A stretch of 63,552 nt of DNA, counting the filler, from Collodictyon triciliatum (lineage: Eukaryota), in the NCBI GenBank assembly GCA_043381765.1. It is 3 parts of 3 records of this genome, joined end to end, with 100 filler letters (N's around TTAATTAATTAA, not from the genome) between each part and the next. Parts side by side here need not be neighbours in the genome. Positions count along the whole stretch, not along the records: positions 10,710 to 35,683 come from JBHJMP010000057.1; 2 more parts are not named here. The stretch is one strand, 5' to 3'. A program made the position numbers and the translations under genes. The notes beneath the pieces are model-generated. The model was not told the DNA's origin. It searched no databases and saw only the letters and a program-made list of their open reading frames with translations. Shown one piece after another: positions 29,004-33,900 of the stretch. Each line of letters starts with the position of its first letter. Positions within the stretch are counted from its first letter, which is position 1.

Positions 29004-30868
29004 TTTTTCAATTTTGCAAAGCTGTTGCCCAGGTCTACGTGAGATGCTATAACTTCAGGGTGGTCTGCTGCTAGTCTGGCAACTCTTCCATCCAATCCTT
29101 TCTTAGAGTAATCAATGGCTTCGTCATATCTAGTGAAGAATATTTTAATGGGCAGTGGCATGGATCTAGTGATGTTTTTATTTTCCTTTGTACGTGTCAT
29201 ATTACCTCTGTTGCTTGTTTTTGTGTTTTTATTCACAAACCTTCCTAATCTGTAGAGAATATTGCCCATATTTGCAAAAAGGTTGCATACATCTGGATGC
29301 GACTCCCCAAGAGTCTTCTGGAATATCTTCAACGCTATGCTAAAGCAGTCCAATGTCTCTGCAAATCTAAGTATAGAGCAAGTAATTAAAGGAGAAAGAC
29401 GAGAAGAAAAGGCACGACATTAACCTTATTGGCATGAATGAAAGATATTCGGTAGATATACGCATATTACTAGAAGAAATTAGAATACGATCATCAACAT
29501 CTACTCATGATTTTATCTCATCTAAGGATGATCCATATTGTGTTTAATAAATAAAATGGTGGCTGTACTTCTCCTGTCTCAGACGTATCGTTCCAATACT
29601 GTACTGTATAACACCAACCGTACGATTGACCTCCCAATTCGGTATACTCATATGGATTGCGAGAGATTTTTGGTAGAACTCGATTGCAAGGTCTACTCTA
29701 TTTATTTATTTACAATACAATGTTTGCTAAGAACGAGATAAGTACACATCCAGAATAAGAATGATAACGACGATGTTCTTGCATTTACATACCTATCCAA
29801 ACGACTGTAAACATTCGCTATATTGACATACGCAGTACTTATTTCAGGATGTTGCTCACCGAATCTTTCTCTTAGAGCAGTTAGCTGCTTCATGAAATTT
29901 TCTAAAGCCAATGAATACCTATACAAAATGTGAATTTTTTTTTTGAGTTTGATATGAAGACCCTGAGCTTTAATACTAAAGTAGAGTATTTGAGCAATTT
30001 TCATGTAATAATACGTCAAGTAAAAAATAAAACAAAATATACAATAACAAAAACAAATACAGAAATTCACAAATGCATGAGTACAAATCTGTTATAAAAA
30101 TTACTTTCCCGTATTCATGTATAACACCCCGATGTTGCTAAGTGAAGCTGCTATGCTAGGATGATTCGCTTCAAGCTTTTTCCTTTTGATATCCAGCGAT
30201 TTGATGTGGTATTTGAGAGATTCCTCGTATCTGTAGGCAAATCCAAAGTTAAATTTTGGTATAGAATCACACAAGTACAACTATTGCACATGAAAAAGAA
30301 GAAACAAAGAAAAGAAGAAAAGAAAATAGTACTGTAGTTACAAGTGTTTGTGTCTCCCTTTCATATATACTAATATTTGACATTTACCGCCAGGTATACT
30401 GCAACATCAAGTGTGCCAAATAAAATTCCAAGATAAATATATATGATTCCTTGTTGCCCCAAACCTTCTTAACTTTCCATAAATACTTCCAAGATTATTA
30501 TAGCATGCTGCTGTGTCCTTATGATCATCACCGAGAATCTTTTTCGCAATTTCAAGAGATTTCATTATGTATTCAAGCGCCAGTTCATATCTGTTTTGAA
30601 AAAGAAATTGTAATTTTGTCGATGTAAAAAGAAAACAATTGCGTAACATATTTTTGAATTCACGATTTTCAATCAAGATTTATTTCTTAATTAGATTTAC
30701 TTTTCTAGTGATTCATAAACAGCGCCCAAATTATTGCACGATTGGATAATATCTGTATGCTTTAGTCCAAGAAGTTTCTTGCGAATGTCGTATGCTTGTC
30801 GGAAATATGATAAAGCCTCCTCGAACCTAATCACCAAAAATTGAATATGATGAACGTGTGTTCAACTA

Positions 30869-30964
<96 letters not shown>

Positions 30965-33900
30965 GAGTTATCCACAAAGCCACATTAGACTTACTTTGAG
31001 GTCTCTCTCAGTACACTCCCAATATTGTTTAAACATGTAGCAACGTCAAGGTGGTCCATTCCCAAGACTTTGATTTTTGAATCGAGGGCAGACAAATAAC
31101 AGTCAAGCGCTTCTTGAAATCTAATACCAGCCGCATATTAAATATAAAAACTAATGATACTGTTCCTCTTGCCCTATTATCCAGTTAAATAAATACAAAC
31201 GTAAATCTTAATTTAATGCAAAGCTATAATATTTTTTTCCTAAAAGAGAGTAAATATATAACCAAAACCCAGTGGCCTCTTTATACTATAAAAAATAGTG
31301 TTGAGGTACCTTCCACGCTCCTGCAATACGAGCCCATTATTGTTCATCAGAGATGAGACATCTGGGTGCTCATCGCCATGAATTCTTTTTGTGATTTCGA
31401 GTGATTTGAAGTAGTAGTTGATTGCGATATCAAATCTATAATATTAAAGCCTCTCTCAGCATTAAAGAATATTATGCTGATTTGTCAGCTGCTTTTAGCA
31501 GGATACAGCAGTGTCATGATTCTTTCATAAATTCTAGAATTTCGATATTGCGTCCATAGACCACATAGCAAAAAAAAAAAAATCCATAAAAATATAAATT
31601 CAGACACTGTTGGGTTCGTGTGGCTTCTGGTATGGTTATATCGATAATGAAATATGTGCATACCTCCCTGTAAAATATGATATGCGTCCGAGTTGATAGT
31701 ACTCCCACGCAGCTGTACCTGGTATTTGGGTATGGTCGAAAACAAGTTAGGCGTATCCCATTTTTTTTATCATAATGCCAAGAAAGAGTGATGATTATGA
31801 AGATTGTGTATACTGGAAATGAGGCGATTTTGTATACTAACCCCCTTTTTCCTCTATTTTTGAATATTTTTTACCTTCCATTTTACTCATGGAAATATTG
31901 TCTTCGAGAATCTGTTTGACATAATCATATTCGGCCATATCGATGAAGTACCGGATAAGCTTCTTTGCTAGTTCTGTATTTTTCTGGGAAACGTAATCGA
32001 ATGTAAGTACTAGGTAGGCAAGCCAATACGCCTATGCATCTACGGAAACTATATTTCTTCATACCTTTAAGAGTTCGTAATAGGTTTTTTTGTCGTCAAA
32101 CCCGGCTGATTTTAGAGTTCTCCATGACGACATGAATCTGTATCTCCACTTTTCCAGCATCAAGACCTTCAAGACCTAGTGTTGAACACAAAGAAAAGGT
32201 GAGAAACGGATAAATTCAGAATCTGGCGGTGAAGCTCAGATAAGAAATGAATAAGAAGAGGGACATTCCAGATCGAATAAAAAGAATACATTCGTATCGG
32301 ACAAAAATAGAGACAGCTCTTTGAAGCATTGTCCTTTAGTATAGCCATAGCAAATTTCTCCAATAATTTCATCCGGAGCATCTGAAAGTGGTTGATATCT
32401 GGCATGCAACCAGGTGGTGTACATAGCAAAGTCGGCAACTTTCGTCATAGACTCAGTGTAGTAGATACTCTCAACAGCATCATGAAGTATATTGTGAAAG
32501 AAGGCGTGCCTAAAAGTTCCAAACATCATTACATAAAATTATATTAATTTTAATTCTAATCACATGACATAAATGCTGCTTCATGTGCCATAATATGCCC
32601 ATGAGACAGTGTATCTATCCCTACCGCCCATTTTTCAGAACTAAGGAGTCATGAAGAGCATAAAAGAAAGATAACCTATTATTTCGAATTCATTATAATG
32701 TAACCGACATACAAAATAATTGGATGTTTGATATGAAGTAGGTGTTTATTTTTCTTTCCTTTTTTTTTTTCTTCTTCCTCGAACAATAAAAATCTAACAA
32801 ATAAATTTTGAGTTGATTTTTTTTATCTTTTTGGTATCAGAATTATTTTTTTTTTGTTAAAAACCATAGACGGAAGTCGAATGTTTCCTTCACTTTTTCG
32901 TGCACAAAATTCTCCAATTCATTTTCAGTCAATCCGACTGTAGATAAATGCAATACAGAAAGTGCAGCACAAACCATACCTGGATCTTAGGATAAAAGAC
33001 TGTACGTGAATTAAACCATCGAAATAGACATTTTGATCGTGAATTATGTTTAAATATAATGTTTTTTTTTTATTCTTCCTTTCAACTTTTGTGCTTGTTT
33101 AAATATAATGTTAAATAATATTTATTGAATTACGCTGTCATTACTAAATCTGTTCTCCCATCTTGATATAACGATGGTATACAGCTGTGGAACCGATTCA
33201 CATTTTGATAAATATTGGATTTCATGATCTAAATCTTCGTAAACACCGAATATTCGAAGTTCATCGAGGAGCATGTGGAGAAACAAAGGAGTTCCTTTTT
33301 TTATTTTATTTTATCTTGCTTGTGAGTATGATATGTATATTCAAGAAGGATTATACTATATGGCAAAGCTGATAAATAATGACAGTCACACTGCTACTAA
33401 AAATAGGATTGATAATTACAAACTTTATTATTTAAAGAAAAACAACAATGAGACATTTACCTGCGGCAGGGCTATTTGATATTTGATCTACTTGAGAAGG
33501 TGTCAACTTTTTGCTGAATCGACCAAGGTATGATATAGTCACTTCTTTGATTTCCTCAGATGTCAAGTAATTCACATCCACTATACTCACATTTTTCTCC
33601 AGAAGACTCTGTGAAAGATTTAAATTGTTTTCAATGAACGAATATTAATAATTTTTTTTTAAAAAAAAATAACTATGGATTACAAAAGGCTGATTTTTTT
33701 TAATAATAGATATAATTTTAAAGAGAATAAACATTAATTGATTAGATATATTACATTAAAGCATGGATGTGGTGTAGGACTGGATACAATCAATCGCACA
33801 TTATCCGGAATAACATTTGGCATCCAATTTAATACTATAGGGTGCAAATCGGACGGGCTTGGGAGAAAGAAGTTGATTGCGTCGATCAAAATAACAAAAG

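Follow-up and report, generated by a model that had tools for sequence, protein, structure and literature searches.

A 63,552-nucleotide (nt) stretch of the Collodictyon triciliatum genome assembly (GCA_043381765.1), the whole of which we call the window, carries on its minus strand a gene in which nine consecutive exons, e1 to e9 (31435 down to 29004), each span one period of a tetratricopeptide repeat (TPR) array. The presence of such a repeat-per-exon array in an expressed eukaryotic gene is confirmed. We consider it likely that the array belongs to one expressed, intron-rich gene for a STAND protein of the NPHP3/NWD1 type, that its exon layout goes back to old tandem duplication, and that its exons are spliced constitutively. 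Such a gene would encode a P-loop nucleoside triphosphatase (NTPase), followed by a helical/winged-helix region and then by about 11 TPRs of the kinesin-light-chain (KLC) type, 42 residues each. The layout would be the trace of an old tandem duplication of an exon-plus-intron unit; the internal repeat exons are symmetric (phase 2-2) and equal in length, whereas the 14 exons upstream are of mixed phases. The exon copies would since have diverged to saturation, and on the available evidence they now appear to be spliced constitutively, in genomic order.

TPR exons, their splicing and their origin

A sequence-only reading of this DNA had proposed the nine consecutive exons and a tenth, e10, at 11382-11257. 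At these coordinates each interval is indeed flanked, as read on the minus strand, by AG before it and GT after it; nine of the ten are 126 nt long and one (29697-29569) is 129 nt long, as had been claimed, and the flanking introns are phase 2, only frame offset 1 being open in each of the ten exons. The array runs on the minus strand through e1 (31310-31435), e2 (30995-31120), e3 (30701-30826), e4 (30465-30590), e5 (30105-30230), e6 (29793-29918), e7 (29569-29697), e8 (29241-29366) and e9 (29004-29129), which are separated by introns of 95-234 nt. When the exons were scanned singly, Pfam TPR_12 matched eight of the nine (E 5e-10 to 8e-3; 1.4e-6 for e1), including e2, e6, e8 and e9, and three passed the curated cut-off as single repeats (e3 with TPR_10 at 32.1 bits, e4 with TPR_12 at 39.8 bits, and e5); the longer e7, the most divergent repeat, has no Pfam match alone. 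A profile made from e1 to e9 finds just 11 places in the whole window, searched in six frames and at the DNA level: e1 to e9, e10, and a further exon, e11, to which we return below.

The proposal that each exon holds one TPR is right as to the period and needs refining as to where in the repeat the borders fall. The TPR_12 and TPR_10 matches with a 42-residue period are those of a KLC-type TPR, and the profile of the wider protein family, over its TPR portion, aligns with the array. The exons align to positions 19-58 of the 77 positions of TPR_12 and start at position 18 of the 42 of TPR_10, a register that gives each exon the B helix of a TPR, then the linker, then the A helix of the following TPR, so that the borders fall in the turn between helices A and B and not between repeats. 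The introns of the array cut a K/R codon of this turn. Whichever exon end (AA or AG) meets whichever exon start (A or G), the codon formed is K or R, and the suggestion that exons could be skipped without a frameshift is therefore correct. Exon e9, which ends in helix A, is followed directly by a GT donor and is thus not the final exon.

Four coded sequencing runs (X1 to X4) were compared with positions 28969-35584. Run X1 contains 14 spliced joints, all GT..AG on the minus strand, seven of them in the TPR array and seven upstream, the latter from two further contigs; GT..AG joints at predicted borders show that the run X1 contigs are of spliced origin. Within the array, a single 1404-nt contig has joints at seven of the eight introns of e1 to e9, each at the predicted border, and runs from e2 to e9 in genomic order, skipping no exon. 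It confirms the donor of e2, both borders of e3 through e8 and the acceptor of e9, and extends 8 nt 5′ of e2 and 385 nt 3′ of e9. Run X1 gives no cover for e1, the e1/e2 intron, 31179-32725, 34494-34935 and part of exon B, a pattern that is uninformative on expression. On the pieces listed, its contigs have no differences from the window apart from a variant at 29571. Exon e7 is 129 nt long in the transcript too, with 126 nt aligned plus three letters that include this variant.

The variant itself is natural, a C>A on the plus strand in contigs of runs X1 and X2 that replaces E by D at the final complete codon of e7, the repeat that diverges most. Separately, a 151-nt contig of run X3, a run labelled metagenome DNA, is identical to 29037-29187 across part of e9 and intron 8, which points to unspliced DNA of the same or a very close organism at a low level in that run. 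A run X3 joint from 32560 to 34949 (21-nt side, CA..TG) was treated as noise, and pieces of 31-40 nt with four to six mismatches from runs X2, X3 and X4 as noise or low-complexity matches.

The symmetry of the array would allow in-frame gain, loss or skipping of exons, which is a potential and not an observed behavior. The sequence-only reading had gone further and cast the symmetric TPR exons as cassettes that are skipped, duplicated or shuffled, by splicing or in evolution, to generate variable NLR-like sensors in parallel to the NB-ARC-TPR genes of brown algae. The uniform 2-2 phase and equal length of the internal repeat exons, and the K/R codon at every junction, are what such cassettes would need; the loss of an exon would join helix A of a repeat to the B helix of the following one, and the fold would survive. 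A precedent exists in brown algae (PMC3341825), together with a splicing report by Teng et al. (2023) as cited in PMC11378527. Yet none of the run X1 joints skips an exon, and the repeat exons are only 14-41 % identical to one another in protein and 47-61 % in DNA, while the introns of the array are unrelated and have low-complexity matches only in common. Combined six-frame stop-masked protein and DNA hidden Markov model (HMM) searches detected neither orphan nor decayed TPR exons, whether in the introns or on either strand of the window, unlike what PMC3341825 describes for the Ectocarpus loci. The NTPase clade, moreover, includes proteins with no known immune role. The combinatorially variable sensor, as originally put forward, is not borne out by these observations (divergent exons, unrelated introns, no orphan exons in the window and an unskipped transcript), and we regard cassette behavior of either kind as improbable. 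We would give slightly less credence still to its fullest form, a family of TPR-STAND receptor genes that vary ligand specificity by skipping cassette exons or trading them between paralogues, as an independent second origin, in another STAND clade and outside brown algae, of the exon-level diversification proposed for the latter.

A different history would have the TPR array inherited whole, with introns arriving later, each by a separate gain, at one proto-splice site that recurs in the conserved G-[K/R]-[Y/F] turn of every repeat. The repeats of the window are as distant from each other as they are from bacterial repeats, with best identities of 27-41 % among themselves vs 32-54 % to bacterial units, a weak test that draws on only nine full foreign units from 3 of 12 homologues. 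Six of the 11 upstream exon ends are AG, and the exons that follow all start with A or G, loosely matching MAG|R; furthermore, all 21 relatives with a long open reading frame (ORF) are intronless. This account, however, requires at least ten independent gains at an identical codon position and phase, the 14 introns upstream display no such regularity, and the divergence is saturated and hence cannot tell the two histories apart. Parallel intron gain is thus an unlikely explanation, and a less likely one than old tandem exon duplication. The neighboring leucine-rich repeat (LRR) domain is encoded in a single uninterrupted ORF of 418 codons, so that a repeat-per-exon layout is not a habit of the genome and is specific to the TPR gene.

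The NTPase and the upstream exons

By homology, the gene is predicted to encode a STAND P-loop NTPase of the nephrocystin-3/NWD1 type joined to a TPR array, NPHP3_N/NACHT-like and not NB-ARC. Walker A (G-x4-G-K-[ST]) is split across exons D and E, and exon H holds Walker B (four hydrophobic residues, then D), both in columns that are invariant in relatives. A local phmmer comparison with the 570 spliced N-terminal residues gave matches to P0004 at E 1e-35 (residues 49-546 against 158-652), P0084 at E 2e-30 and P0075 at E 4e-22, along with 122 further or same family members among 242 proteins compared; the metagenome relatives of the spliced N terminus are 21 ORFs of 22 loci, with a best E of 1.4e-42. 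These matches, to proteins with DUF4062, NPHP3_N, NPHP3_hel and TPR_12, point to a STAND NTPase-TPR protein of the nephrocystin-3/NWD1 type, and the earlier assignment of the array to a STAND protein thus gains support at E 1e-35 to 1e-42.

Domain content of the relatives points the same way. Above the Pfam cut-off, P0004, P0084 and P0075 carry an N-terminal DUF4062 and NPHP3_N on the P-loop, with NACHT in P0084 and NPHP3_hel in P0075. Among 26 relatives scanned at E <= 1e-3, NPHP3_N was found in all 26, DUF4062 in 24, NPHP3_hel in 17, and HTH_NWD1 and NACHT in 12 each; NB-ARC matched 13 of the 26 weakly (best E 1e-5), below NPHP3_N. A phmmer comparison with four NB-ARC TPR proteins gave no support for the NB-ARC type, with E 1.1 for P0018, E 6.9 for P0020, and P0046 and P0111 absent at E <= 10. 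At the other end of the protein, a profile of the ten TPR exons has at least 120 TPR proteins among the matches listed.

A profile of the relatives aligns colinearly to residues 43-860 of the gene model (387 bits), which also validates the predicted junctions, and residues up to about 546 are colinear with P0004 and P0075, as expected for a helical/winged-helix module that follows the P-loop domain. Position 153 of the profile, right past DUF4062, is where this alignment begins; exon A corresponds to the stretch immediately following DUF4062 in relatives, and at least 222 nt more of a run X1 contig lie 5′ of exon A. The N-terminal domain was probably DUF4062, to judge from this register, lost at the contig end.

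Other searches with parts of the gene added little. A word-index search with the exon-I ORF returned no relatives. A phmmer search with exon H against 1.84 billion representatives gave three matches, to a PKD/bacterial Ig-like repeat or to no family, that we judged spurious. A profile search of the PDB with TPR-less relatives matched in the DUF4062 part only, apart from four overlaps with the NTPase or later region at E 0.27-0.9. PADLOC, applied to six relatives, assigned no defense system and reported generic TPR models plus a weak mad8 (E 3e-5) for P0084.

The 15 upstream exons (A to N and e0), all on the minus strand, were built from the seven upstream joints of run X1 together with GT/AG and frame constraints. 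Exon A (35399-35527, phase 0-0, AG/GT) is the first in this piece of the assembly, and a run X1 joint links 35238/9 to 35398/9. The acceptor of exon B (35096-35239) is confirmed by RNA, and its donor is predicted from GT, frame and colinear alignment to relatives. Exons C (34825-34926; AG/GT, open frame) and D (34654-34711; AG/GT) are predicted; D supplies the first half of Walker A, and exon E (34363-34483), whose donor is RNA-confirmed (joint 34257-34363), completes the P-loop with GK[T/S] and aligns to the invariant G-x-S-G-x-G-K-S block of relatives. Both borders are RNA-confirmed for exons F (34178-34257), G (34032-34092), H (33755-33908), I (33461-33608) and J (33145-33294). Exon H holds Walker B (hhhhDAIN) and the LNW-P...V-hhhS block, and exon J, the most conserved exon, holds the PL-L..LLDEL..FG block of the helical domain. 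Exon K (32865-32985) has an RNA-confirmed acceptor and a predicted donor, the run X1 contig continuing into the A-rich intron. The remaining exons are predicted: L (32290-32509), in the winged-helix/helical region, from AG/GT, frame and colinear alignment to the family profile; M (32065-32175), whose W-R-x-L motif aligns to relatives; N (31875-31983); and e0 (31664-31718; AG/GT), which was missing from the sequence-only reading. With 55 nt, phase 1 in and phase 2 out, e0 encodes only helix A of the first TPR and provides the phase and the helix that e1 requires. The composite coding sequence comprises 26 exons and 3162 nt in frame with a single terminal stop, or at least 1053 codons, the 5′ end being missing; e1 to e10 are all phase 2-2.

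The 3′ end, assembly and neighboring genes

Two exons would complete the array. Exon e10 (11257-11382, minus strand; 126 nt, phase 2-2) matches a Pfam TPR family at E 0.012 and the e1 to e9 profile at E 6e-5, and is in frame with e9 and e11. The terminal exon e11 (10924-11059, minus strand; phase 2 in), which the earlier reading had overlooked, encodes the final TPR's helix B and a C-terminal helix, ends in TGA, and matches the profile at E 1e-7. Both sit on an 896-nt contig (10710-11605) at the other end of the same 25-kb piece as e9, and the interval from e9 to e10 contains N gaps and 16.5 kb with LRR-kinase and RING-variant genes on the other strand. One of these gaps, 753 N at 28166-28918, lies 85 nt downstream of e9 and is bordered by a (GTTT)n run. 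Phase, the need for a helix-B exon after e9 and the lack of a workable upstream start for e10 (an ATG near 12084 has no in-frame donor, and its phase-2 donor creates TGA) suggest that e10 is probably the next exon of the same gene.

The length of the run X1 contig beyond e9 also supports this link: the sum of e10 (126 nt), e11 (136 nt), a 3′ untranslated region (UTR) of 100 nt up to the A-run and 23 A equals exactly 385 nt. The apparent 17.6-kb intron between e9 and e10 could be a scaffolding artefact, with contig 10710-11605 belonging in the 753-N gap beside e9, in which case the LRR-kinase and RING genes would not be nested. The e10/e11 contig is short and has N runs on either side, one and the same (GTTT)n repeat closes the e9 side and the block at 11706, and the 385-nt remainder and the missing in-frame donor from the ATG at about 12084 fit this placement. 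The length match is arithmetic only, however; a gap that hides three TPR exons (378 nt) would account for the 385 nt almost as well, and nested genes on the opposite strand of long introns do occur. We see misplacement as a serious possibility that falls somewhat short of even.

The window is itself composite. The linkers at 10610-10709 and 35684-35783 are identical, each consisting of 44 N, the 12-mer TTAATTAATTAA and another 44 N, a six-frame-stop linker; the window is therefore three separately assembled pieces joined artificially, and genes across a linker are not thereby neighbors. The second linker cuts the 5′ end of the STAND gene at 35683. The composition of the window and the short GT-AG introns of the STAND gene point to an AT-rich eukaryote.

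Other genes are recognizable around it. Two paralogous genes, at 17845-20930 (plus strand) and 51080-48096 (minus strand), look like cytosolic LRR-kinases: in each, an LRR ORF without interruptions (418 or 458 codons; LRR_14, LRR_8) precedes an ORF for a protein kinase (Pkinase E 1e-38 and 2e-35). The former sits on the strand opposite to the STAND gene, within that gene's apparent intron of 17.6 kb. An exon with a RING-variant (RINGv) domain at 22357-22713 (plus strand; E 1e-15) is probably, by its domain, part of a gene for a MARCH/Doa10-type ubiquitin ligase that runs to about 27 kb. Between 12300 and 15400 there is a GC-rich island (0.46-0.52 vs about 0.35 elsewhere) in which long ORFs of both strands overlap. 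Two of these, 13851-14693 (plus strand; 281 codons) and 14178-14834 (minus strand; 219 codons), have no Pfam match; a Nab2-type CCCH zinc-finger match lies at 12616-13248 (plus strand; E 1e-5). The outer pieces contain exons of ordinary eukaryotic genes, one for a dynein microtubule-binding stalk at 990-1433 (minus strand; MT, E 4e-16) and one for a bromodomain at 60237-60575 (plus strand; E 1e-5). At 36071-42000 (plus strand), phosphodiesterase-like HD motifs were seen by eye and are unconfirmed; the ORF scanned there, 40032-40304, has no Pfam match.

Weighing the gene and its relatives

By analogy with other STAND proteins, the TPR solenoid could bind a partner or ligand; binding would free the NTPase for nucleotide exchange and oligomerization, which in turn would gather the N-terminal domains to signal. 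Several points weigh against a single, constitutively spliced STAND gene with this function. This signaling mechanism is drawn from other STAND proteins. The transcript evidence for the array is one contig from one run, X1, whose RNA label is a guess, and contigs, from which rare variants drop out, do not bear on rare isoforms. Exons C, D, L, M, N, e0 and e1 are prediction only, with no RNA cover, and the link of e9 to e10 and e11 is indirect. The domain assignment is by homology of the spliced model to domain-bearing relatives: no single exon or upstream ORF matches a Pfam NTPase family beyond chance level (0 relevant matches in 12 exons). Finally, no intron-bearing relative was found among the 22 loci of a metagenome scan with exon J, and the close relatives retrieved are all intronless and of prokaryote type. 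With these points counted, we still hold that one expressed NPHP3/NWD1-type gene with an anciently duplicated exon array is the likely reading.

The locus is a clean, RNA-supported example of repeat growth by symmetric exon duplication, and it gives a DUF4062/NPHP3_N-TPR family that is mostly bacterial in the collections searched an intron-rich eukaryotic member. It also calls for caution, as equal-phase repeat exons alone do not demonstrate combinatorial use. Were cassette diversification true, receptor variation at the exon level would have a second and independent case beyond the brown algae.

The nearest relatives are bacterial DUF4062-NPHP3_N-TPR proteins (from Prevotella sp. khp1 and the metagenome loci L001-L022), which are colinear with the Collodictyon gene over the post-DUF4062 linker, the P-loop, the helical domain and the TPR_12 array, and share with it motifs near Walker A and Walker B, LNW-P, and LLDEL..FG. 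They differ in being single uninterrupted ORFs, and their identity to the Collodictyon NTPase is low (62-141 bits over about 500 residues). In the exon J scan, the 22 loci are 35-56 % identical; 21 have one long ORF of 371-1632 codons, and the other, L017, is a 117-codon fragment. Further relatives of P0004 are for the most part metagenome proteins without names; those with names come from Prevotella and are called 'nephrocystin-3' or 'tetratricopeptide repeat protein'.

Among animal proteins, NPHP3, NWD1 and TEP1 may be counterparts, linked only by the Pfam families NPHP3_N, NPHP3_hel, TPR_NPHP3 and HTH_NWD1, which occur in relatives of the Collodictyon gene, and by one PDB match. In NWD1 and TEP1 the repeats are of the WD40 kind and not TPRs. 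The PDB match is a solved TEP1 fragment (11gz_A, 'Telomerase protein component 1'), to which the relatives align with their DUF4062 part at E 1e-27. NACHT proteins of ctenophores, which are early-branching animals, with DUF4062, TPR or WD40 have been catalogued as candidate immune receptors (PMC11797021); the shared DUF4062 and TPR combinations make this a likeness by domain content, the available part of that paper giving no exon structure.

For the exon layout itself, the literature searched, with incomplete coverage of subscription journals, holds no one-exon-per-TPR gene outside brown algae. The precedent invoked by the sequence-only reading is as claimed: in Ectocarpus, Zambounis et al. 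(2012; PMC3341825) describe 13 paralogous NB-ARC loci that together hold 124 TPR exons of 126 nt, or 42 residues, carry inactivated copies of such exons in their introns and show signs of shuffling among one another, and PMC11378527 credits Teng et al. (2023) with alternative splicing of NB-TPR exons. In both systems a STAND NTPase precedes TPRs whose 42-residue periods are encoded one per exon, each exon being 126 nt long, a multiple of three. The Ectocarpus NTPase, however, is NB-ARC, whereas that of Collodictyon is NPHP3_N/NACHT-like; Ectocarpus has decayed TPR exons and signs of shuffling, according to PMC3341825, whereas the Collodictyon window has no such decayed exons and its TPR exons are deeply diverged; and the Ectocarpus exon is described there as a whole 34-residue TPR plus linker, in contrast to the Collodictyon border in the A/B turn. 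The 126-nt TPR exon unit is thus already published for the NB-ARC-TPR genes of brown algae, and the Collodictyon gene is an ordinary member of a known family.

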